The notes under the pieces were generated by a model that worked only from the letters and a program-made list of their open reading frames with translations, ran no database searches and had not been told where the DNA came from. The position numbers were made by a program, and so were the translations under genes. Of a stretch of DNA of 64,000 nt, positions 2,257 through 57,896 are shown in pieces. Source of the DNA: Somniosus microcephalus (lineage: Eukaryota); contig CM126218.1 of NCBI GenBank assembly GCA_052327205.1, positions 69,812,001-69,876,000 of the forward strand, written 5' to 3'. Numbering within the stretch: position 1 is the stretch's first letter; each line of letters begins with the position of its first letter.

Positions 2257-3017
2257 AGCCCAGCAATTCGGGTCGGGGGCTTCCCGCGGGTGCAAGCCCC
2301 CGATCTGCACTTACCTAGCGCGCCGGCTGTTGAGCTGTAGGGCCCGCGTGGAATTCCGATCCGGGGCCTGGTCCAGCTGCCGGCGCGCAGTGCTTGCGTA
2401 TCCCAGGGGCGCAGTTAGTTTGATGCGTCCCCTGGGATCACGTGGGCCATGGGCAGCCAATCGGAGCAGGGAATGCTCCATTCATAAGTCTTGACAGGAA
2501 GTGCTGTCAAGACTTATAAATACTACGGCCCCAAAATAGCACTAAACATTCAAATAAAAAAATTTTTAATCACATTTTTTAAATAAACTATAAATTACAT
2601 TAAATAACTATTTTAAACAATAATTTAAATTTTTGGAAAAAAAATATAAAATTATAACTGGGCTAAAAATAAACTTACCTTGCTTTAAAGTATTTAAAAA
2701 ATAATAACCCTGTGGAAAAAATGTTTTAATTTTAATTAATTCACCACTTACCTTGTAAAAAGCAGGCTGTACGCCTGCTTTTTACATTTCTAACTTCTGC
2801 AGGCTTACGATCCCGGAGAAACTTGTTTAAAAAAAAACGTAAGTTTGATGCGCAGCCTCCCCGCGCACGCGTTCGACCTCTGAACCTCTTCGTTCAGAGG
2901 AACGGAAGTGCTGGTTTCCCGCGCATGCGCAGTGCATGCAGAAAACCGGCACTTCCATCGGGCCTACGGGTGAGTACCCTGTGCGTACTCACCCGTGGAG
3001 ACCCGAATTTCTGGGCC
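2257..3017. mobile_element. MITE copy 1 (PIF/Harbinger-related, non-autonomous)
   Basis: TIR agcccagcaattcgggtc ... gacccgaatttctgggcc; homologous end to end with 49186-49941. Confidence 0.85.
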
Positions 3018-3097
3018 AATAACTGATTACTTCATGGAAGTATTTTAGCAGGCTACCGATGAAAGAAAGAACTTGCATTTATCACATTTTTGGGATC

Positions 3098-5744: not shown

Positions 5745-7720
5745 ATTCTGGAAATAGTGGGGAACCAAGGGTCTAGCGAGAATGAAGAACTTAAAGAAAT
5801 AAGTATTAGTAAAAAAATTGTACTGGAGAAATTAATAGGACTAAGTCGACAAATCCCCTGTACTTGATGGCTGACATCCTAGGGTTTTAAAAGAGGTGGC
5901 CACAGAGATAGTGGATGCATTGGTTTTGATCTTCCAGAATTCTCTAGATTCTAGAATGGTCCCCGTGGATTGGAAGGTAGCAAAGGTAACCCCGCTATTC
6001 GAGAAAGGAGGGAGAGAGAAAACGGGGAACTATAGACATGTTAGCCTGACATCAGTAGGGAAAATGCTAGAATCTATTATTGGGGAAGTGGTAACAGGGC
6101 ACTCAAAATCCTAATATGATTGGGCAGAGTCAACACTGATTTATGAAAGGGAAATCTTGTTTTGACAAATCTGTTGGGAGCTTTTTGAGGTTGTAACTAT
6201 AGCAGGGGGAACCACTGGATGTAGTGTATTTGGATTTTCAAAAAGCATTTGCTAAGGTGCCACACACAATTGGGGCCCATGGGATTGGAGGAGGGTAATA
6301 TGTTAGCATGGTTTGAACATAAGAATATAAGAAATAGGAGCAGGAGTAGGCCATTTGGCCTTTCGAGCCTGCTCTGCCATTCAATAAGATCATGGCTGAT
6401 TTTCTACCTCCACTCCACCTTCCCTGCACTATCCCCATATCCTTTGATTCCCTTAATATTCAAAAATCTATCGATCTCTGTCTTGAATATACTCAACGAC
6501 TGAGCCTCCACAGCCCTCTGGGGTAGAGAAATCCAAAGATTCACCACCCTCTGAGTGAAGAAATTTCTCCTCATCTCAGTCCTAAATGGCTGACCCCTTA
6601 TTCTGAGACTGTGACCCCTGGTTCTAGACTCCCCAGCCAGGGGAAACACCCTCCCTGCATCTACCCTGTCAAGCCCTGTAAGAATTTTGTATGTTTCAAT
6701 GAGATCACCTCTCGTTCTTCTAAACTCTAGAGAATATAGGCCTAGTCTACTCAATCTCTCCTCATAGGACAATCCCCCCATCCCAGGAACCAGTCTGGTG
6801 AACCTTTGTTGCACTCCCTCTATGGCAAGTATATCCTTCCTTGGGTAGGAGACCAAAACTGTACACAATACTCCAGGTGTGGTCTCACCAGGGCCCTATA
6901 TAATTGCAGTAAGACGTCTTTACTCTTGTACTCAAATCCTCTTGTAATAAAGGCCAACATACCATTTGCTTGCTGTACCAGCATGTTAACTTTCAGTGAT
7001 TCGTGTACAAGGACACCCAGGTCCCTCTGAACACCGATATTTCCCAATCTCTCTCCATTTAAAAAATACTCTGCTTTTCTATTTTATCTACCGAAGTGGA
7101 TAACTTCACATTTCTCCACATTATATTCCATTTGCCACGTTCTTGCCCACTCACTTAGCCTGTCTATATCCCCTTGAAGCCTCCTTGCATCCTCCTCACA
7201 ACTTACATTCCCACCAGCTTTGTATCATCAGCAAACTTGGATATATTACATTTGGTCCCCTCATCCAAATCATTGATGTAGATTGTGAATAGTTGAGGCC
7301 CAAGCACTGTTTCAGCATTGGTTAACATTTTCGGTTTGGCAGGCTGTTGCTAGTGGGGTACCGCAAGGACCAGTCCTTGAGCCTCAATTATTTACAATCT
7401 ATATCAATGACTTGGATGAGTGGACCGAGTGTAAAGTTAGGTGGCAAAGTAATGTGCGAGGAGGCTGCAAAGGGATATAGACAGGTTAAGTGAGTGAGCA
7501 AGAACAGGGCACATGGAATATAATCTCTACCCCAGAGAGCTGTGGATGCTCAGTCATTGAGTATATTCAAGACAGAGATCGATAGATTTTTGATATTAAG
7601 GGATATGGGGATAGTGCGGGATGGTGGAGTTGAGGTAGAAGATCAGCCATGATTTTATTGAATGGCGGAGCAGGCTTGAAGGGCTGAATGGCCTACTCCT
7701 GCTCCTATTTCTTGTGTTCT
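5745..7720 (+). mobile_element. CR1 LINE fragment (+) interrupted by a nested CR1 (-)
   Basis: RT-region peptides (VPVDWKVAKVTPLFEKGGREKTGNYR) at about 5745-6315, resuming near 7310 to a CR1 3' tail at about 7720, with an internal deletion near 7520. Confidence 0.85.
6317..7308 (-). mobile_element. CR1 LINE 3' part nested in the opposite-strand CR1
   Basis: LYRALVRPHLEYCVQFWSP, RGDLIETYKIL, TRGHSLRI, RNFFTQRVVNLW; tail at about 6317-6340. Confidence 0.92.
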
Positions 7721-12372: not shown

Positions 12373-14271
12373 ATGGAGATCAAAAATGAAATGCTCAAGT
12401 TCAGCAATATGGAAATGCAGGGTGCGGTACTCAAATTATTCAACATCATATTACGTTCAGGCTGTTTTCCCGATATCTGGTGCCAAGGACTAATCTCCCC
12501 CATATATAAAAGTGGAAACAAATCAGACCCAAATAACTACCGCGGCATCTGTGTCAACAGTTGTCTAGGGAAGTTATTCTGCAGTATTCTAAATAGTAGA
12601 TTACTTGATTTTCTTAACAAACATAATATCCTCAGAAAAAACCAAATAGGCTTTCTTCCAAAACACCGCACCGCCGACCATATCTATACCCTTCACACCC
12701 TCATTGAAAAACATATACACCAAACAAAAAATGGGAAAATATTCGCCTGTTTCATCGACTTCAAGAAAGCCTTTGACTCTATATGGCACGAAGGGCTCTA
12801 TTATAAACTTCTTCAGTGTGGAATAGGGGGCAAAGTCTATGACCTTATTAAATCAATGTATCTGAAAAACAAATGCGGGGTCAAAATTGGAGACAAACGC
12901 ACCGATTTCTTCACCCAGAGAAGAGGCGTCCGGCAGGGCTGCAATTTGAGCCCGACCCTGTTCAACATATACATAAATGAATTAGCAGACATGCTGGAGC
13001 AAAGCGAGTCACCAGGTCTCCGTCTCCTGGATGGAGAAGTGAAATCCCTGTTCTATGCGGACGACCTGGTCCTGCTGTCTCCCACAGAACAGGGATTACA
13101 GCAACAACTAGACCTACTCGACAAATACTGCCAAAATTGGGCTCTAACAGTAAATCTAAAAAAAACCAACATCATGATTTTTCAAAAAAGGCCCAGATGT
13201 CAGGAAAACAAATACCAGTTTACCCTCCGTGATACCACTATAGGACACACTATGAGCTACACCTACCTTGGTCTAACTATTACAGCATCAGGGAGCTTCA
13301 ACATAGCAGTGAATGCACTAAAAGAAAAAGCCCGAAGAGCCCTATATGCAATAAAAAGAAAATTCTACAACATCCAAATCCCAATCAAAATCTGGCTCAA
13401 AATATTTGACAGCATAATCCTGCCCATTGCACTGTACGGTAGTGAAGTATGGGGCCCGCTAAATCACCAAAGCTACACCAAATGGGAAAAACACACAATA
13501 GAAGCCCTACATGCAGAATTCTGCCGAAGCATCCTTCGCATCCAAAGAAAAACGCCAACAAATGCATGCAGAGCCGAACTAGGCAGATACCCACTGATAA
13601 TAAACATCCAAAAACGAGCACTAAACTTCCTAAATCACCTCAAATCTAGCTCCCCAGACACCCTTCATTTCAAAGCATTTCAGACCCAAGAGCTAAACCC
13701 AGAAAAGAGTCCCCTGAGTCAGCTGCTACTGAAACTAAGTACTCAGCCGGACCCTGACCAACCCCAGACCAACACAGCCGTCCAAACACCAATCCGAGTG
13801 AACCAAATCATTAAACAATGCAAAGAAACCTACCTGGAACATTGGAACAAAATAACCGAAAGCCAAAGCAGATTAGAATGTTACCGGGCCCTAAAAAGAG
13901 AATATAAACTGGCAGACTACCTCACGACCATCAGAGACACAAAACAGAGACAGACCCTCACCAGGTACAGACTAAGCGACCACCAACTGGAAATTGAAAA
14001 AGGCAGATACAAGAAATCCTGGCAGCCTAGAGAGAATAGAATATGCGATCAATGTCTGGCCGGCGAGGTTGAAACAGAAATGCATTTCCTCCTAAAATGC
14101 GAAAAATTCAACACATCAAGAAACATATTATTCAACAAGCTAAGCCAAACAACCCCAGATTTCAAGGAATTGGATGACCTGTCAAAATTGAGATTAGTCC
14201 TAGGAGAAGGAGACAGACCATACCTTGGGGCCAAATATGTAACAACATGTCACAACCTGAGGACTGTTTAA
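12373..14271 (+). CDS. Reverse transcriptase plus C-terminal Zn motif of the LINE (endonuclease lost by truncation)
   Basis: NYRGI, FIDFKKAFD, GVRQGCNLSPTLFN, LFYADD, YTYLG motifs; no stop or frameshift in 632 codons. Confidence 0.9.
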   Translation: MEIKNEMLKFSNMEMQGAVLKLFNIILRSGCFPDIWCQGLISPIYKSGNKSDPNNYRGICVNSCLGKLFCSILNSRLLDFLNKHNILRKNQIGFLPKHRTADHIYTLHTLIEKHIHQTKNGKIFACFIDFKKAFDSIWHEGLYYKLLQCGIGGKVYDLIKSMYLKNKCGVKIGDKRTDFFTQRRGVRQGCNLSPTLFNIYINELADMLEQSESPGLRLLDGEVKSLFYADDLVLLSPTEQGLQQQLDLLDKYCQNWALTVNLKKTNIMIFQKRPRCQENKYQFTLRDTTIGHTMSYTYLGLTITASGSFNIAVNALKEKARRALYAIKRKFYNIQIPIKIWLKIFDSIILPIALYGSEVWGPLNHQSYTKWEKHTIEALHAEFCRSILRIQRKTPTNACRAELGRYPLIINIQKRALNFLNHLKSSSPDTLHFKAFQTQELNPEKSPLSQLLLKLSTQPDPDQPQTNTAVQTPIRVNQIIKQCKETYLEHWNKITESQSRLECYRALKREYKLADYLTTIRDTKQRQTLTRYRLSDHQLEIEKGRYKKSWQPRENRICDQCLAGEVETEMHFLLKCEKFNTSRNILFNKLSQTTPDFKELDDLSKLRLVLGEGDRPYLGAKYVTTCHNLRTV

Positions 14272-18590: not shown

Positions 18591-21415
18591 TGTTTGATTT
18601 TTTAGCTCTCCTGACTCAAGATGATTATTACTGTAGCTAATTCTAATGGGAGACCTCCTCCCAAGTGCGTTGAAGTAAGTTTTCTACTGCTGCCTGTTGT
18701 GTAGTCATATGCAGCATGTGATGAGATGTACTCAATTAATTTTTTTCTCATTGGGGAGTATCAAATGCTCAGCAGTTATATGAATTAAAATATTCAAGTG
18801 CATGTCACGTTAACTTTTTTTCCTCAACAGCGGTAGTGAGCTCTAGGCTCTCTTTCACTTGCATGCAAGTCATTATAACTCTATTTATAATAGTTGTGGT
18901 TATTCTGAAAGAGCAGCTGTAACTGATGATTAGAGAGCTTTTCTACGTCCTCACCCTCTGAGCCAAGTGGTTGTGGGTTTGCTTGGGAGGGGAGCAAGTC
19001 TTGATGAGGATGTTTTCTTATGGCTAGTTTAGTTTCTGAAGATAGTCTATGGTTTTTTTTTCTTTCATCCTCTTCCCCTCCTGAAGATAATTGACTTTGT
19101 GTGGGTGTAGTTCTACAGAGACTAGATGCCCATTGATATCTTGCCCAGGTAACTATTAATGATTCATATGCTAGACCATGGTGTCTGTTGGATTATTCAA
19201 ATGCTGTGAAAATCACAACTGAATTTGATCCTGCGCAAATCATTTGCACCCTTTTAACAGGATTTGCTGGATAGTGATCACGAGCAGGACTTTTAAGACC
19301 TGGAAACAACTTTGATCACAACAGTGGCAAAAACTCATTGAACCGAAAATTGATCCCAAAAACTAAGACGATAATACAGCCTTTGTTAACCAGAGTAGAA
19401 TATATTTCTGTAATCCATAGCCATTTTTTTAAACAGCACTGGGCTTTTTGGACAGCGGGGGTCTGATGTCAACTGTAGTTTTTGGGAAAGAAGGAAGGTG
19501 AGTTAATGGACGCAATCTCGGTTTCCTCCCACATAAACGACATGTTCAGTCTGTATAGGATGCACTGCGTGGTATTACAGTACACAGACAAAAAGACTCT
19601 GTGTTTGACCTTGGTCTATGCTAAGTTTGCTGATATCAGCTGGTTCAGCAGTTAGGAAGCGAAAATTCACCTCCAGGTCCAGGATATATAGAGAGAAATA
19701 TTAGCTGGGACCCTGTTTTTTTTACCTCTAACAATTCAGGTCAGGAGAAGTCTGATTCAGCTGTGATACTTTGCCATTGAATAGTCTGCTGGTACTCACT
19801 GTCTGCACTCAGACATGAAGAATGGCCGGAGATGGGGAAAGAAGGTTGTTGGTACCTTTGGGGCTACACCCCTGCAAGAATCTGCACCTCCAGGAGAGAA
19901 GGGATAATGCCTGTGGGTTTTATTCACTTGCGTTCCCAGTGCCCCTGCCATTTATTATATATTTTTTTAAGTACAGTGTGATTACAGGAATATAATCCTC
20001 TAGTTAACAAAGGTTGCACTGTATTCTTGGGATTAGTGGGATTCAATTTTCAGTTCACTCTGTTTTTGCTGGTGAGAGCCTGATTTATAATTGGAATTTT
20101 TCCCAAGTATTAAACTCCTTGATTAAGTATGAAGGCAGAACTTATACTTTGAGGGCCAAATCTATTGCCAATATTCACTGAATCATTTTTATTTTTACAA
20201 ATGTTGGTAACTAGCTTCTTGATTGGGTATCTAATTCTCCTCCTGATAGTGAACCTCTTCTGTGGATAATGCCTAGTTTGATCACTGCCTTCCTCTCGCC
20301 AGCAGAACCAGAATTGTTGCATCCCCAGTCTTGGGATGATGAGCATTACTCCAATAGTTTTGCAATAGATGGGCTTGGTTTTCTAATGGAAAGAGCATTC
20401 CTGTATTTGTGGGCTACTTGCTACATTAACATTTTTTCCCTTTAGTTTTTTTTCTGTTGATAGCTTCACTAGCACAGGTTCAGTTCCAGAATACCCTGTT
20501 GACCTCTGTTGATAGAAAATGGTACTGCAATCAAATAGTTTTTACCTCATTCACTTAAGTTTGATCTTTTTGCAGATGTCCTGGGCTTGGCTTGAAGTGG
20601 CCAGGCTGTGGTCTGAGTATTACTGTACCAATGCCCCAAATACAAGCTCATTCCCTTCATAGACCTGGATACTGTTGCTTAAAATAATTTTTTCCCCTCT
20701 TTCCCCATCCTCTTTTTTGGAGAACAGTAAAGGAGAGAACTGATCTGCTTAACCAACTTTACTCTGGTTCTAACCCTGAAGTTTGTTAATTTCCAATTCA
20801 CACTTGCTTAAACATTGTTCCAATATTGCTTAAAGGTGCTTGCACTTTTGGGACTGTTGGCTTCCTGTGATGAATCCTGTGTAGTCCTTTGGCTTGCAGT
20901 CCCTAAGATTGTTACAAGGCTATTTAATTTGGATGAGTCATTTTAGTATTTGAGGGAAATGACTTGGTACACAAATCTTCCTTTTATTACTGTTTTTAAA
21001 GCTAGTTGATTGTTAAATATGTTTTGACAGTATCTGCCAGTTTTAAAATAAATTTGATCAAAGCTAATAAAATTGCACCAGCAATAATTTCTAGTTCTAG
21101 CAGTGCAGCTGATCATCTTGCAAGTTTCCCTCCAATTAAGATTTCATGGATGCTGGTGGAACAATGTCATTAGTTGTTTAGACTGAAAACCATTTAACAG
21201 CTAAACAATTGCCCCATTAATTCTTTGCAGATAAGCATTGTTAATTGGTCTGGGAGGTCACTTTCTAAAAAGCTGCACTAATCCAAGTCCTAAAAGCAAC
21301 GTTGGTAAGTTTGAAAAGTGCACTTGAGGCTGAGCGAGGACTGGACAGAACAAGAGTGCAAATGTATGGATAGCGCTGATTATCAGTAGGTGACTGAGCT
21401 GCCGTGTAACCAACA

Positions 21416-37864: not shown

Positions 37865-38149
37865 TGATGGGCCTTCAATAACCACAAAACTAGAAGTTAT
37901 AGACTTAAACAAGTTGGCTTTTAATCACTAAGATCAGAGCTAACCTCTCAACACGCCGACTGGTTCACAGGAATGAGTCATACAGATCCTGGGATCTTTA
38001 TGTAAGAGAAGTCGGGCGGAGCCAAGAGCCAAGACCTGGAACCTCCCAGGTTAGTCGGGAAAGAGGAAGTGAAACTATACACAGTGGGGGAGGGTAATAT
38101 ACATGAGTGCAAAACGAATACAGGATCAAGACAAACAGATTTCATTACA
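37865..38149 (-). repeat. 3' LTR (285 bp)
   Basis: Direct repeat of 41899-42185, adjacent to the PPT. Confidence 0.95.
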
Positions 38150-38190
38150 TTCACCCCTGCTATAGACTTAGTCCATCGGGGTGATGTTTC

Positions 38191-41100
38191 TTAAAAGTTG
38201 GTATAAGTGAGTCTGTCAGGAGGTTTTGCAGTTCTCAGTGATTGGCGCAAAGCCGGTTGGGGTGCCTCTAGAGAAGTGGATTCTGGTTCCTCCGTTGTCC
38301 GGGCCTCCGCAGTGTCTTCCAGGTTAAAGTTGGGTATTGATACCTCTGGGCGTCCTGTCTCTTTGTAGTGTAGGTCTTCATCGGGTAGTCTCCCATCGTT
38401 CTCTCCGCTCCCCGAGGGAGCGAGGTCTTTTATGGAAACAGTGTCCTCGCGCCCGTCAGAGTATTCGATATAGGCGTACTGAGGGTTTGCATGGAGGAGC
38501 TGTACCTTTTCCACAAGGGGGTCCGTTTTATGGCCTCTCACGTGCTTCCGCAATAGTACTGTCCCTGGAGACGTCAGCCACGCGGGTAGAGATATGCCCG
38601 AGGTGGATTTCCGGGGGAAAACGAACATCTTTTCGTGAGGGGTAGCGTTAGTGGCAGTACATAACCGAGACCTTATGGAATGGAGCACGTCTGGGAGGAC
38701 TTCCTGCCAGCGGGAGGTCGGAAGGCCTTTTGACTTTAAGGCTAACGTGACAGCCTTCCAAACAGTAGCATTCTCCCTTTCCACTTGCCCATTACCCTGG
38801 GGTTGTAGCTAGTGGTTCTGCTAGTGGCTATCCCCTTCGAGAGCAAGAACTGGCGCAGCTCGTCACTCATGAATGACGTCCCCCTATCGCTGTGTATGTA
38901 GTTCGGCATGCCAAACATGCAGAATAGATTACAGAGACACTTGATGACCGTGGCACTGGTCATGTCTGGGCAGGGAATGGCGAAGGGGAAGCGGGAATAT
39001 TCATCGATGATATTGAGGAAGTATACGTTACGGTCGGCAGAGGGAAGGCGTCCCTTGAAGTCCAGACTTAGGCGCTCGAATGGCCGTGTGGCTTTGATAA
39101 GGTGTGCACGGTCAGGCCTGTAGAAACGAGGCTTGCATTCCGCACAGATGCGGCAGGCCCTGGTCATTGCCCTAACCTCCTCGATGGAGTGGGGCAGATT
39201 GCGGGACTTTATAAAATGGTATAGTCGTGTGACCCCTGGGTGACAGAGGTCGTTGTGGAGACCCTGTAATTTGTCCGTATGAATGCTGGCACACATTCCC
39301 CGCGATAGGGCGTCTGGGGGTTCATTAAGGGCTCCCGGCCTGTACATAATATCATAGTCGAACGTGGATAGTTCGATCCTCCACCTGAGTATTTTGTCAT
39401 TCTTGATTTTCCCCCTTTGTTATTAAACATGAAAGCCACCGACCGCTGGTCGGTGAGCAGGGTGAAACGTTTGCCGGCTAGGTAGTGTCTCCAGTGCCGC
39501 ACTGCCTCCACTATAGCCTGTGCCTCCTTCTCGACAGAAGAGTGCCTGATTTCAGGTCCCTGAAGGGTTCGGGAGAAGAAGGCCACAGGTCTCCCAGCCT
39601 GATTGAGGGTCGCAGCTAAGGCAAAGTCTGACGCATCGCTTTCGACTTGAAAGGGAATGCATTCGTCCACTGCACACACTGCAGCCCTTTCAATGTCCTG
39701 TTTAATACTGGTGAAAGCCTCCCGAGCTTCAGCTGATAGTGGGAAGGACGTCGATTTAATGAGGGGTCGGGCCTTATCAGAGTAATTGGGCACCCATTGG
39801 GCATAATACGAAAAAAATCCCAGGCACCTTTTTAAAGCTTTGGGATTGTGTGGCAGGGGCAGTTCCTTTAGGGGGCGTAATCGGTCAGGGTCCGGTCCAA
39901 TTACCCCATCTTCCACCACACAGCCGAGGATACAGAGACGGGTTGTGTTGAAGACACAGTTGTCTTCGTTGTAGGTTAGATTCAGCTTTAGGGCAGTTTT
40001 AAAAAATCTCGCAAGATTTAGATCGTGGTCTTGCTGGTTGTGCCCGCAGATAGTGACATTGTCCAGATAGGGGTAGGTAGCTTGTAGTTTATTCTCGTCA
40101 ACCATGCGGTCCATCTCACGTTGGAAGACCGAGACCCCATTTGTTACCCCGAAGGACACTCTGAGAAAATGGTAGAGGCGCCCGTTCGCCTCGAAGGCGG
40201 TGTATGGGCGGTCCTCCGTTCTAATGGGGAGCTGGTGATACGTGGATTTGAGGTCGATAGTCGAGAAGACTCGGTATTGCGCAATCTGGTTGACCATTTC
40301 TGATATGCGGGGTAAAGGGTAGGCGTCCAGCTGGGTATAAATATTAACAGTCTGGCTGTAGTCAATTACCATCCGTTTCTTTTCGCTATTTTTAACTATG
40401 ACTACTTGGGCACGCCACGGGCTGGTACTGCATTCAATAATGCCTTCCCGCAGGAGTCTGTCCACTTCCGCCTTGATAAAGTGTCTATCTTCCAGACTGT
40501 ACTGTCTACTTTTGGTCGCTATGGGCCTACAGTTCGGAGCGAGATTAGCGAATAAAGAGGGCGGGCTGATTTTTAAGGTTGATAGGCCACAGACTGTGAG
40601 TGGCGGCTGGGACCCGCCATATGCTAGCGTGACACTTTCGTGGTGGCACTGGAAGTCCAGGCCCAAGATTACATTAACACAGAGTTCTGGCATCACGAGG
40701 AGTTTAAAATCCTTGTAGTCCGTGCCTTTTACAGTCAGTGTTACCACACAGTAGCCCAAAATGTCCGAAGCGTGGGGCTTAGCAGCCATAGCAATTCTGC
40801 TCCGTGTAGGGGTTACCGTTAATGAGTGCCGCCGTACCAGGCTAGGGTGGATAAAACTCTCGGTACTCCCAGTCAATTAAACATTTCATTAAATTCCCGT
40901 TTACCTGTATGTCCATCATGGATTTTGTCAACGGGTGTGGCCTGGATTGATCCACCGTGATCGAAGCCACTGTTGGGCCCTGGGCGGCCGTTGAGTCGGG
41001 AAAAGACGGCGGATCCCAAGATGGCGGCCCGCACGGCACGCACGAGGCGGTGACGGAGTTGGAAATCGGATTCCCCCTGCAGACTTTGCTAAAATGCCCC

Positions 41101-41873
41101 TTTTTCTTACATTTGAAGCATGTAGCGTCCTTCGCTGGGCATCGTTGTCTGGGGTGCTTGGCCTGGCCGCAGAAGTAGCATTTTGGGCCTTGAGACATTG
41201 CCGCTGTAGTAGGACTCCTGGGTGAACTTCTGTGTGGGGACTCCGGCGGCGTAGAGCTGGTCTGAGACCTGGATGGGGAAGATGGCTGATTCCAAGATGG
41301 CGGCCCCCTCGGCGTGCACGAGGCGGTGAGGGCCGCATGGCCGGAAGAATAAGAGTCAGAGTTTTTCTGGGCCACGTCCAGCGATCGCGCAGTGGCCACT
41401 GCCTTTTTTAAGTCCAGGACCACCTCCTCCAGCAGTCTCTGCCGGATATAATTCGATTTGAGGCCCGTGATGAAGGAATCGCGGACCAATTCGTCAGAGT
41501 ACGCGTTGGCCGTCACGGCCTTGCAGTTACAGTCCCGGACCAGGTCCTTTAGGCCCTGTAAGAAATCGTCCATTGATTCCTCTGGTCGCTGCCTGCGTGT
41601 AGCCAGCAGATGTCTGGCGTACACTTCGTTTACCGGCCTCTGGTATTGGGCCTTCAGGATAGTGATGGCCTCCGTGTAAGAGGTGGCGTCCCGGATGAAC
41701 GAATAAATCTGATGACTTACGCGAGTAGTCAGCAGACTCAGTTTATCTACCTCGCTAGCGGATGAGGCCCCCGCGAAGAGTTCGAAGCATTTGAGCCAGT
41801 GTCCCAATTGATTTGATGCTTCAGCAGAATGTGGATCCAAGTCCAGACGCTCTGGTTTTTGGAGTCGATCCAT
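38191..41873 (-). pseudogene. gag-pol of the Gypsy element, broken by three frameshifts
   Basis: Gag with two Zn knuckles (CYFCGQAKHPRQRC, CFKCKKKGHFSKVC); protease LID/TGS split near 40870; RT (IDLKS, YLDN); RNase H (ESDASD); frameshift near 39410; integrase HHCC and D,D,E with a frameshift near 38795; no chromodomain visible. Confidence 0.93.
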
Positions 41874-41898
41874 CCTAGTATTCTTTAGTGATTAAAAT

Positions 41899-42185
41899 TG
41901 ATGGGCCTTCAATAACCACAAAACTAGAAGTTATAGACTTAAACAAGTTGGCTTTTAATCACTAAGATCAGAGCTAACATCTCAACACGCCGACTGGTTC
42001 ACAGGAATGAGTCATACAGATCCTGGGATCTTTATGTAAGAGAAGTCAGGGGCGGAGCCAAGAGCCAAGACCTGGAACCTCCCAGGTTAGTCGGGAAAGA
42101 GGAAGTGAAACTATACACAGTGGGGGAGGGTAATATACATGAGTGCAAAACGAATACAGGATCAAGACAAACAGATTTCATTACA
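41899..42185 (-). repeat. 5' LTR (287 bp)
   Basis: Differs from the other LTR by one substitution and one 2-bp indel. Element-sense GC box, CATAAA, Inr-like TCATTCC and ATTAAA. Confidence 0.95.
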
Positions 42186-42608: not shown

Positions 42609-43974
42609 TAAAATCACAGTTGGCGTATCTAAATGATTGTTTTCCCCATTCTGTTCAATACTTTTTACACACCCTCAGTACTCCACTGGAGTGCCGGCCT
42701 AGATTTTTGTGTTCAAGTCTCTGGAGTGGGACTTTAACCCACAAACTTCTGACTCCGAGGCGAGGGTGCTACCAACTGAGCCACAGCTGACACTAAAATA
42801 TCGGTAAAGTTTAGGAGTGGTACACAAAGGGCCATAATTTGTTGGAGTGAATCTAGCGGTGTCTGCCGTTAGTTAGACTTGCTTTTTCCTGTTTAATCTC
42901 GACGGTACTTTGTGTCGCAAGTTGCTGGAAGTGCGAGCTGAAAAACTTGCAGCGAAGGAAACCAGGTATCTGGGACCCGAGTGAACAGGACAAGCAACTG
43001 TGTACCTCCTTACCGATTCAGATTGAAGAATTGTGAAACAAACAGCGCAAGGACTGAGAATGAAGAGTAAATTAGAGTGGGTGAATTCAATGTCAAATCA
43101 GGTAGAAAAAGAGAAATAAAGTTAGAAGGAAGGAAAGATTGTATTACGAGAGAGAGAAAATAGACAGAAAGGAAAAGTAAAAAAAAAAGTTTTAATTTTA
43201 AATTTCACATTTTTAAAATATCCAACAACAATTAAAACCCGAGAGAATGAGACACCACACTTAATTTTCAGTGCCAAAGTGGTTCATTGGCAGTAATTAA
43301 CAATTAGCACATCCATAAAAGAATCTCGACAGCAAATCCAGACTTAATTAAATATGTGCCGACCTTAAATGTCAATCACATTCAGTATTGTGTCCGCCTC
43401 AACACTGAGCCAACGCTAGCTGCGGATAAAATAAGAGTGCTGCACTCTAAGCAGGCAGCGTTTTTGGACACCTTGCGAGACTGAAGAGCCAACCTACTGG
43501 GATGTAATTTTCTGGTTAAGTTGAATACAGGGTGCTGAAAAATAAAAATCTGATTTTTTAAAAAACAGATCCTTCAACCGTCTCAGCCTTACTCTTTGGA
43601 ACTATCCCCATTAACCTTGCTACTTATCTCCCAGCCTTTAAAAACATCCTCAAAACCTACTGCTTGCCATCCGTTCCTGCTTTGTGAAGCGCCTTGTGAT
43701 GTTTTCTCCATTAAAGGTGCTGCATAAATGCATGTTGTTGATGTACATGAACATAATGAGACATGGTCTTGTTGCCTTATAGTCAAAAAAAGATGCTGTA
43801 ACTGACAGCCTCCTGATGTTCGAGGTGAACCTTTCAGTAGCCCACTCATGTATCAGTTCAAGAAAAAATTCTTCAGTAGGTCCACTTTCAAACTTAATAA
43901 AGTGCAAAAAAGAATGATCCGCTGAATTTAAATTGGTCAGGCACTGAGTATATTTCTGTGCTGGAAAACGTTAA

Positions 43975-48876: not shown

Positions 48877-49116
<240 letters not shown>

Positions 49117-49185
49117 TGACCTCAAACCAGCTTTACATTAAGATAAACAGAAATGTTTGTTAAATCCATTTGATAATGAAATAAT

Positions 49186-49941
49186 GGCCCAGAAATTCGG
49201 GTCGTAGGCTTCCCGCGGGTGCAAGCCTCCGACCTGCACTTGCCTAGCACGCCGGCCGTTGAGCGGTGGGCCCACGTGGAATTCCGATCCTGGGCCTCCT
49301 CCAACTGCCGGCGCGCAGTGCTTGCGTATCCCAGGGGCGTAGTTAGTTCGAAGCGTCCCCTGGGATCACGTGGACCATGGGGAGCCAATGGTAGCAGGGA
49401 ATGCTTCATTCATAAGTTTGACAGGAAGAGCTGTCAAACCTATAAATACTATAAGCCCCAAAACATCACTAAAACTTCAAATAATTTTTTTTTAATCACA
49501 TTTTAAAAATAACTATAAATTACATGAAATTATTTTAAACAATAATTAAAATTTTTGTAAAAATGAATTACATTTTCTAACGGGGCTAAAAATAAACTTA
49601 CCTTTCTTTAAAGTATTTAAAAATAATAAACCTGTGGGGAAAAATGTTTTAATTTTAATTAATTCGCCACTTACCTTGTTAAAAGCAGGCCTTGCACTTG
49701 CTTTTTAAAAGTGTAACTGCTGGAGACTTACCCTCCTGGAGAAAGCTGCAAAAAAAACATAAGTTCAATGTGCACGCGCTGCCTTTCCTGCGCACACGTT
49801 CAACTTCTGAACCCCTTTCAAGGGAACGGAAGTGCCGGTTTCCCGCGCATGCGCAGTGCATGCACGAAACCGGCACTTTCGTTGGGCCTACGCATGAGTA
49901 CCCCGTGCGTACTCGCGCGTTGGGACCCGAATTTCTGGGCC
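49186..49941. mobile_element. MITE copy 2 with perfect 18-bp TIR and 3-bp TSD AAT
   Basis: aat|ggcccagaaattcgggtc ... gacccgaatttctgggcc|aat. Confidence 0.9.
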
Positions 49942-50452
49942 AATGATCCAATAAATGGCAGCGCATATATCTAGAGATTTTAATGTGTGTTCTCAAGTCC
50001 TCACCCTGACCAAAAGTAATGATATTGAAAACTAACCATTCAGCCTCACAGTGGTAGGAAGCTAATTTGTGCCTCTGTTCTCTGCTGTACTTGTATGGGA
50101 AGAGCCCAAGTGGTTTCCCATAGGGAGAGAAAGCTTTAGGGAGAGCTGTGCTGGTGCATCTCCTGCTGCTTGGTGGAGGTCTGGTAGTGTGTCTCTGTTT
50201 TTAAAAATCTTTATTGATAAAAATACATGGAGTGGGAGGGGGGCAGGGGGAGATGAATAAAAATGGTAGTAAAAGTGAAGTTGTGAAAAGTTACTTCGTC
50301 AATGACTGACCTTTCTTTAGAAAGTCTGAATCCCTGCAGTTTGAAGGCAGGTGGCTTCTCTCCAGTTTTTAACCTGTTGAATGGATAAAGTTAGAAATAT
50401 AGTTAGTTTCTAGAGAGCATACTAGATCCTTCATTTGACCCCAGTATATATT

Positions 50453-50778
50453 CAGGAAACTTTTTTTTATACGGGACCGACGTGGTGCCGGTTCATCAAA
50501 AATTCTGGATAACCGAAAGCTATAGTAAAAGATACGGAGAGCTGACCGCTCCGTATAAAGCAACAAACCCTGTTGCTTAGCAACAAGTGCAGAACAATGG
50601 CCACAAGTTCCAAGCGTCTCTGTAGCTTAGCAACTGCTGCAGCCACACCCTTGCACAGCAACAGATCGAGGAAGGCAAGTACAAATATGAAGTAAAACTT
50701 ACCTGAACCTACTCCTGAATTTTGCCGGTTAACCGAGATTTCCGGTTATTTAGGTGCCGGTAAATTGAAAGTTTCCTG
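50453..50778. mobile_element. Tc1/pogo (Tigger)-like MITE
   Basis: TIR caggaaacttt ... aaagtttcctg, extending imperfectly to about 26 bp; repeated ccggtt motifs; TA TSD not preserved. Confidence 0.6.
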
Positions 50779-52859: not shown

Positions 52860-54260
52860 ATCACATTATCAGGACAACAGCACAGTTCAATATCGAAACA
52901 TGCAAATGACACAAAAGTGGGAAGCATGGTTAACTGTGAAGCTGACGGTAAACAGCTTCAGTAGGGCACAAACAGATTAGTAGATTAGGCAGAAAGATCG
53001 TGGATAAAATTTGATGCAGAGAAATATGAGGTGGGAGAATATTTTAGGAAGGAGAATAAGGAGAGCAAATATACACTGAATAGTAAAACTTTAAAAGGAG
53101 CAGAGAAAGTTCGGGGCACAAGCAAAATACTACAGATGCTGGAAATCCAAAACAACAAAGTGCTGGAAACATTCAGCAGGTCAGGCAGCACCTGTGGAGA
53201 GGACAGAGGAGTTGACGTTTCAGATGTTGATTTAGGGGAGCATGTTTCAAGGCTGCAATTTAAGATAATGCAGAGACTGGGATATGGTACAGGCTGTAGC
53301 ACAGGATAATGCAGAGACTGGGATATGGTACAGGCTGTAGCACAGGATAATGCAGAGACTGGGATATGGTACAGGCTGTAGCACAGGATAATGCAGACTG
53401 GGATATAGTACAGGCTGTAGCACAGGATAATGCAGAGACTGGGATATAGTACAGGCTGCAGCACAGGATAATGCAGAGACTGGGATATGGTACAGGCTGT
53501 AGCACAGGATAATGCAGACTGGGATATAGTACAGGCTGTAGCACAGGATAATGCAGAGACTGGGATATGGTACAGGCTGCAGCACAGGATAATGCAGACT
53601 GGGATATAGTACAGGCTGTAGCACAGGATAATGCAGAGACTGGGATATGGTACAGGCTGTAGCACAGGATAATGCAGAGACTGGGATATGGTACAGGCTG
53701 TAGCACAGGATAATGCAGAGACTGGGATATGGTACAGGCTGTAGCACAGGATAATGCAGAGAGTGGGATATGGTACAGGCTGTAGCACAGGATAATGCAG
53801 AGACTGGGATATGGTACAGGCTGCAGCACATAAAGCATTCAAGAGGACATAATGTAAGCAGAAGTTCAGTGGTCATTTTAAAAGTATAGATTTTTAAAAG
53901 TGGGAGGATAAGTTGATCGGGCTGTAAATACAGCATGTGTAATCCTAGGTTTTATAAATAGGGGTATAGAATACAAAGGTAATGCTAAACCTAACATCAT
54001 TGGTTAGGCTACAGTTAGAATATTGTGTCCAGTTTGGGCACCTTACTTTAGGAAGGATGTCTGGTCCATGGACAGGGTGCAAAAGTGCTTCACAAAGATG
54101 GTACCAGGGATGCAAGGCTTTAGTTATAAGGAGAGGCCAGAGAAACTGGGGCTCTTTTCATTAGAGAGAGGAGTTCTGATAAAGATGTTCAAAATATAAT
54201 GCAGGATAAGCTATTTTCACTGGTCGGTAAGTTGGTGACTAGAAAGCATAAATTTAAGAG
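52860..54260 (+). mobile_element. Old CR1 fragment hosting a Penelope-type terminal piece (about 53120-53225) and a minisatellite
   Basis: SKHANDTKV, YTLNSKTLKG, LVRLQLEYCVQF; cagatgctggaaat...gcaggtcaggcagca resembles the end of the PLE at 15400. Confidence 0.72.
53264..53830. repeat. Minisatellite, 14 copies of a 41-bp unit (three 39-bp variants)
   Basis: Unit gataatgcagagactgggatatggtacaggctgtagcacag, counted directly. Confidence 0.97.

Positions 54261-57574: not shown

Positions 57575-57896
<322 letters not shown>

Follow-up and report, generated by a model that had tools for sequence, protein, structure and literature searches.

Serial hairpins in a Pangu-like MITE of Somniosus microcephalus and the possible role of template switching in their upkeep

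Why are the GC-rich ends of a short, non-coding transposon tiled with hairpins, and why do two copies of it differ in three stems on both arms at once? This question is raised by an element in a 64,000-nt stretch of Somniosus microcephalus DNA (assembly GCA_052327205.1, contig CM126218.1, positions 69,812,001 to 69,876,000, forward strand), which is the whole of the DNA that was analysed and is called the window here. The initial annotation suggested that the family carries a structured RNA or single-stranded DNA fold under selection, and named template-switch correction of quasi-palindromes as the neutral alternative. In the explanation that we consider best, and to which we give about an even chance, the element would be a PHIS MITE whose stems are homogenised at the DNA level by template switching in source elements and then decay neutrally.

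The two full copies (Table 1) have no coding capacity and carry terminal inverted repeats (TIRs), and one of them has kept an AAT target duplication on both sides, so that their description as a MITE holds. The second copy, proposed together with the first, was borne out by an end-to-end alignment with 105 substitutions in 747 columns and 23 gap columns, in which the similarity ends at the TIRs. The complete AAT duplication is present in copy 2 only. Copy 1 has its right side; the left flank is CTG, and AAT sits 3 nt further out (2251-2253). At this left junction (2245-2262) CTGA occurs twice, a short duplication between the expected AAT and the TIR that could be read as the result of slippage. 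The element consists of a left arm with 62% GC, a core with 17% GC and a right arm with 53% GC, an internal anatomy that is unusual within a known kind of transposon. No Pfam match was found in the frames that overlap the copies, and both are non-coding. The window as a whole gave no transposase, Myb or DDE domain (103 frames of at least 88 aa on both strands and 88 shorter frames on the plus strand), and ARAGORN, run on the DNA, returned 0 matches. No further copies were detected in the 64 kb with blastn (word size 7) or nhmmer, which leaves two full copies as the basis for any statement on copy number or uniformity of length. Two patterns from the element had 0 exact matches in prokaryotic genome contigs and a phage collection gave no match to it; a weak, AT-rich plasmid match (E 5e-3) was rejected as a copy. 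The family may already be catalogued in repeat databases.

Table 1. Positions of the two copies, their parts and the host gene in the window
Feature	Position	Strand	Remarks
Copy 1, non-autonomous TIR element	2257-3017	none	761 bp
Copy 1, left TIR	2257-2274	+	16/18 match to right TIR; 2 mismatches
H1	2273-2303	none	10 bp, perfect; pair 2277/2299 G-C, A-T in copy 2
ACTTACCT on +, donor-like on -	2309-2316	-	also at 2673 and 2746
H2	2318-2388	none	outer stem 15 bp; 13 paired in each copy
H3	2400-2438	none	10 bp, perfect, invariant in both copies
H3b, small hairpin	2463-2479	none	6 bp
H4	2484-2517	none	14 bp, perfect; pair 2490/2511 C-G, missing from both arms (gap/gap) in copy 2
AT-rich core	2532-2751	none	17% GC; stems not above chance-level A/T pairing
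H5	2754-2786	none	14 bp, perfect; 10/14 in copy 2, four one-sided breaks
H6, sixth perfect stem	2877-2900	none	9 bp, perfect; 5/9 in copy 2
H7	2904-2956	none	nested inner stem, 6 bp, 2923-2939
H8	2966-2996	none	12 bp, perfect; pair 2969/2993 G-C, C-G in copy 2
Copy 1, right TIR	3000-3017	-	18 bp, identical to both copy 2 TIRs
Copy 1, right flank AAT	3018-3020	+	surviving half of target duplication
S-adenosylhomocysteine hydrolase-family gene	34392-62822	+	at least nine exons, PF05221/PF00670 matches
Host exon of this gene	48981-49097	+	PF05221 E 3e-10; AG/GT ends
Copy 2	49186-49941	none	756 bp; 18-bp TIRs perfect; AAT at 49183-49185 and 49942-49944

The tabulated exon belongs to an S-adenosylhomocysteine hydrolase-family gene, and copy 2 starts 88 nt into the intron that follows it, so that the copy is transcribed within this intron. 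The matches of this gene to PF05221 and PF00670 lie near 34.5, 36.3, 46.1, 49.0, 54.9, 57.0, 57.6, 59.5, 61.9 and 62.7 kb. Another of its introns holds an LTR retrotransposon (37865-42185, minus strand) with protease, reverse transcriptase, RNase H and integrase domains over several frames; its 285-bp LTRs are 99% identical, and it is a young insertion. The window has a GC content of 40-46%, CpG at 0.39 of expectation and, besides this one LTR retrotransposon, many LINE remnants. Among these are a nearly intact ORF2 segment, with a 632-aa open frame and a reverse transcriptase domain (12373-14271, plus strand), and a frame at 6407-6895 whose named relatives are from Chiloscyllium punctatum and Callorhinchus milii, in keeping with a cartilaginous-fish host. 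There are also two tandem arrays (53250-53830 and 57671-57896) and two inverted repeats of about 90 bp with 77% identity that lie 740 bp from each other (19327-20069), possibly an old TIR element. A small CpG-rich element at 50453-50778 has an 11-bp inverted terminal repeat starting CAGGAAAC. A decayed element-like stretch at 42829-43350 starts GGGCCATAATTTG and is AT-rich in the middle. It was rejected as a homologue of the MITE, as its alignment scores lie within those of shuffles and it folds poorly (z -1.5); it is possibly an older sister MITE with undetectable homology.

The serial hairpins are a solid observation. All five stems named in the initial annotation (H1, H3, H4, H5 and H8) are perfect inverted repeats. 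We counted perfect stems of at least 9 bp with loops of 3-30 nt and used 1000 segment-wise dinucleotide shuffles as the control. Copy 1 has 6 such stems against a shuffle mean of 0.66, and 0/1000 shuffles reach 6; copy 2 has 3 against a mean of 0.67, with 37/1000 shuffles as high. When the window is cut into 84 tiles of 760 nt, 70 tiles are without such a stem and one has 5. Folding z-scores of the whole element rest on 20 shuffles and are inflated by its GC/AT mosaic, and we therefore folded the arms separately as single-stranded DNA. The two arms scored z -9.2 and -9.5 in copy 1, and z -5.3 and -4.7 in copy 2 (0/200 shuffles in each case). Eleven hand-listed helices take up 244 nt of the approximately 540 nt of arms. 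Their main loops are 5-19 nt long, and no sequence is shared from stem to stem. Loopless palindromes, which cannot form hairpins, are enriched as well (6-mers, 18 versus 9.5, 9/1000 shuffles, and 19 versus 9.0, 1/1000, in the two copies). At 49811-49823 copy 2 has a different stem of 4-5 bp in the place of H6; the loss of H6 and the gain of this stem could be a single, very short switch event.

The position of the stems, which tile both GC-rich ends but not the core, would also be expected if there were selection on the DNA itself in the source elements. Transposition might then be raised by symmetric binding sites, by remnants of a promoter or by cruciforms able to extrude, so that variants that keep the symmetry are amplified, and template switching may supply such variants. 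Short words recur between the left and right ends, ACTTAC[CG]-like words occur 9 and 8 times per copy versus 2.2 times per 760 nt, and divergence is among the lowest in the segments 2878-2960 and 2385-2440. However, the stems are without a common sequence, unlike repeated protein sites, and the part of the mPing study cited here attributes the effects of internal sequence to GC content or nucleosomes rather than to structure (PMC9921582). The comparison of stem and non-stem conservation, which had been put forward as a test of selection, came out in the expected direction and fell short of significance: 28/241 stem sites differ between the copies (11.6%) against 43/259 non-stem sites of the arms (16.6%; P 0.12), and the stems had been picked as intact, so part of the difference is an ascertainment effect. 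This somewhat lower divergence of the stems counts against our best explanation, and the missing significance counts against selection on the DNA, which we consider rather unlikely, if still the main rival.

The two-sided changes in H1, H4 and H8 that the initial annotation had described are all found in the alignment. They stand beside 21 one-sided breaks in the 122 local pairs, 6 of them in copy 1 and 15 in copy 2, and in copy 2 the stem of each two-sided event also holds one or two uncompensated mismatches. When each copy was folded independently, which avoids hand selection of stems, one-sided changes outnumbered compensated ones by 36 to 3 and by 36 to 2 (177 pairs each). Another account would be that the stems descend from one ancestor and that the two-sided changes are independent mutations that match by chance. 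We simulated neutral decay that starts from perfect stems and stops at the divergence seen between the copies, with five parameter choices for CpG rate and branch split and 3000 runs for each. Two or more compensated substitutions are not unusual under neutrality (P 0.06-0.35), and differences on both sides are found in 4/122 pairs versus 1.9 expected (P 0.09). At least three events of either kind gave P 0.009-0.13. In the covariation check, run on two sequences and so with almost no power, 2/136 pairs covary and 136/500 shuffles score as high. Against coincidence are the mirrored single-base indel (P 0.012-0.024) and the joint pattern of two substitutions and the indel (P 0.001-0.009), which is a post hoc statistic on three events chosen after looking at the alignment. 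A coupling between the arms thus has weak support from two copies, most of which comes from the mirrored 1-nt indel. If the CATG of copy 2 in H8 stems from two CpG decays, H8 would hold a second compensated pair. Coincidence is also silent on where the stems came from, and we regard it as unlikely.

How the stems have decayed can be read from the breaks. On the plus strand there are 9 G-T, 8 A-C and 4 other mismatches (binomial test of G-T against A-C, P 1.0), and 17/73 arm substitutions are of the CpG type. The best reading is that the stems, as inverted repeats at the DNA level, were close to perfect in the source elements and break down once a copy has been inserted. Repair in place or selection specific to copy 1 was rejected because the 6 versus 15 breaks fit CpG-decay ages of 7 versus 10, and because the stems of copy 1 were chosen as perfect. 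Inserted copies record selection on source elements only through differences between subfamilies, and neutral decay after insertion therefore leaves room for such selection.

It is in the source elements that a role for a folded single strand could be placed. A vertebrate family of Pangu-type MITEs might keep its approximately ten hairpins by selection, with the folded strand aiding mobilisation or amplification, either as minus-strand RNA of the element transcribed from its promoter-like end or as single-stranded DNA during excision or gap repair. We judge this to be quite improbable. The proposal of the initial annotation, a structured noncoding RNA under selection, to which an RNA scaffold for proteins of the element may be added, would need purifying selection on the fold as long as elements are active; it is slightly more doubtful still, and the two copies do not support it. 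The predicted fold is very stable and the three two-sided changes would suit an RNA, and the neutral decay of inserted copies is compatible with selection in their sources. Neither the folding z-scores nor the mismatches, however, show a strand preference, and 136/500 shuffles match the covariation. Among the RNA-fold pairs common to both copies, invariant G-U pairs number 2/103 on the plus strand and 2/97 on the minus strand, no main loop has 4 nt in both copies, and two of the three two-sided events (the indel and the transversion pair) are without a G-U intermediate. Rfam gave 0 matches at the gathering threshold in the 64 kb; of the sub-threshold matches, 10 and 3 in the two copies, none is common to both, and the best (E 0.046) is absent from copy 2. 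Copy 2 is transcribed as part of an intron and accounts for 15/21 breaks, among them 6 G-T and 5 A-C.

What keeps the case for an RNA alive are candidate promoter and donor motifs, which would allow a minus-strand transcript. CGGAAGT and GCGCATGCGC in H7, at the right end, which we take to be ETS-like and NRF1-like promoter motifs, are each confined, in this orientation, to the two copies within the window. ACTTACCT, presumably the complement of a consensus-like splice donor, occurs six times in the window. Five occurrences lie in the two copies, all with the donor on the minus strand and antisense to the host gene, and the sixth is in the small element at 50453-50778. These words may be remnants of the promoter and first exon of a parent element, or protein-binding sites. 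Splicing of internal exons from the minus-strand donor-like motifs to the nearest acceptor-like sites was rejected, as the introns would be 20-42 nt long and thus below the size limit.

IS200/IS605 and Helitron elements are HUH elements with single-stranded DNA intermediates and are not known to have a TIR pair or a target duplication. Mobility of this kind, Helitron-, IS200/IS605- or replitron-like and with functional hairpins, is highly improbable here: both ends fold strongly as single-stranded DNA, but perfect TIRs and a target duplication indicate DDE cut-and-paste, and neither HUH nor helicase domains were found in the window.

We return to template switching in source elements followed by neutral decay. 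The element would depend for its mobility on an autonomous element elsewhere, whose DDE transposase and partner DNA-binding protein would act on it in trans, and copies 1 and 2 would come from slightly different source elements. Short-range template switching would create hairpins in actively copied source elements and at times make them perfect again, as a switch rewrites one arm as the complement of its partner in a single event. This may produce any kind of two-sided change, a mirrored indel or a G-C/C-G swap among them. Within the limits of two copies, the pattern after insertion is neutral decay, one arm at a time and with loss of CpG. MITEs themselves are thought to arise through interrupted gap repair (PMC13668399). 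Gap-repair synthesis after excision is probably prone to template switching, and repeated gap repair would expose source elements to switches more than ordinary DNA. According to published work, template switching can give rise to perfect stems, to compensatory changes and to what looks like structure, all with no selection involved (PMC5453318, PMC8794818). The neutral alternative of the initial annotation fits better than a structured RNA under selection. Intra-strand switches leave the loop intact, and the loops are unchanged between the copies; no inverted loop, which would be unequivocal evidence of an inter-strand switch, was seen between copies 1 and 2. For short stems, PMC8794818 itself describes the part that template switching plays in their maintenance as circumstantial. 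It also counts against template switching that approximately ten stems in 530 nt are many for a rare mutation, unless its rate is raised or hairpins are favoured.

If our best explanation is true, the family offers a natural system, rich in copies, in which to study template-switch mutation. Comparing dated copies by the thousand across several source lineages would then give the selection-free rate of perfect stems and of 'compensatory' changes. It would also call for caution in covariation-based RNA discovery in repeats. If transposition depends on the stems instead, cut-and-paste elements would have a new requirement in cis, with a bearing on why some MITEs amplify so well. A folded single strand that aids mobilisation would add a requirement for nucleic-acid structure to a DDE cut-and-paste system.

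Among the groups of known elements, Pangu is described with an ANT duplication and TIRs of 11-40 bp that start with AG or GG, PIF/Harbinger with TWA, ISL2EU with A/AT/T and a 2-bp duplication, and Spy with AAATTT and no duplication (PMC4482050). The element here has an 18-bp TIR with a GG start and an AAT duplication, in one intact case. Its AAT differs from the TWA of PIF/Harbinger in the strict sense, although one MITE survey puts AWT under PIF/Harbinger in the wide sense (PMC9033116); its right flank is AAT and not ATT in both copies, unlike ISL2EU, and the flanks AAT/AAT differ from the target of Spy. The flank paralogues in the window offered no usable empty site for the duplication. On its duplication and the length and start of its TIRs, the element fits a Pangu-like PHIS (Harbinger-like) element as described, a superfamily call that rests on one intact 3-bp duplication. 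Membership in Pangu is defined by the transposase, and we therefore call the element Pangu-like rather than a member.

The likeness to Pangu thus lies in the 3-bp ANT/AWT duplication, the 11-40 bp TIR and the GG or AG start, and Pangu also includes a non-coding family of 199 bp (PMC4482050, supplement table S3). The 15 Pangu-bearing genomes listed there include no vertebrate, whereas the element here is from a shark, and it may extend ANT-target PHIS elements to cartilaginous fish, which are absent from that list of 2015. Harbinger was not detected in elephant shark, according to the part of PMC9179366 cited here, and PIF-Harbinger is reported from whale shark together with 10.8% unclassified repeats (PMC8455134). 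With mPing and the Tourist-like MITEs the element shares its short, non-coding sequence, a TIR that starts with G and a 3-bp duplication (PMC9921582, PMC2836001); mPing differs in its TWA target, against AAT here, and in its length of 430 bp, against 760 bp. The initial annotation assumed that cut-and-paste MITEs need only their ends. This premise is contradicted by mPing, where internal regions promote or inhibit transposition (PMC9921582; review PMC12595863), and internal sequence likely modulates mobility in such MITEs and in the element alike. Serial internal hairpins are unmentioned for Tourist-like MITEs in the cited parts of PMC9921582 and PMC2836001, and the literature covered, mostly outside subscription journals, gave no report of compensated changes in the stems inside a vertebrate MITE. 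Hairpins of this kind, carried by transposons and compensated on both arms, are reported for the IS200/IS605 stem-loop elements (PMC2775950). The element here, with its TIRs and target duplication, differs from HUH elements of the IS200/IS605 and Helitron types. Template-switch or quasi-palindrome mutation has been described in human and chimpanzee genomes, rRNA, miRNA and yeast reporters (the last in PMC3820800), with no transposon source lineage among the cases cited, and it shares with the element the Watson-Crick stems, the one-step two-sided changes, the indels and the preserved loops (PMC5453318, PMC8794818, PMC3820800).
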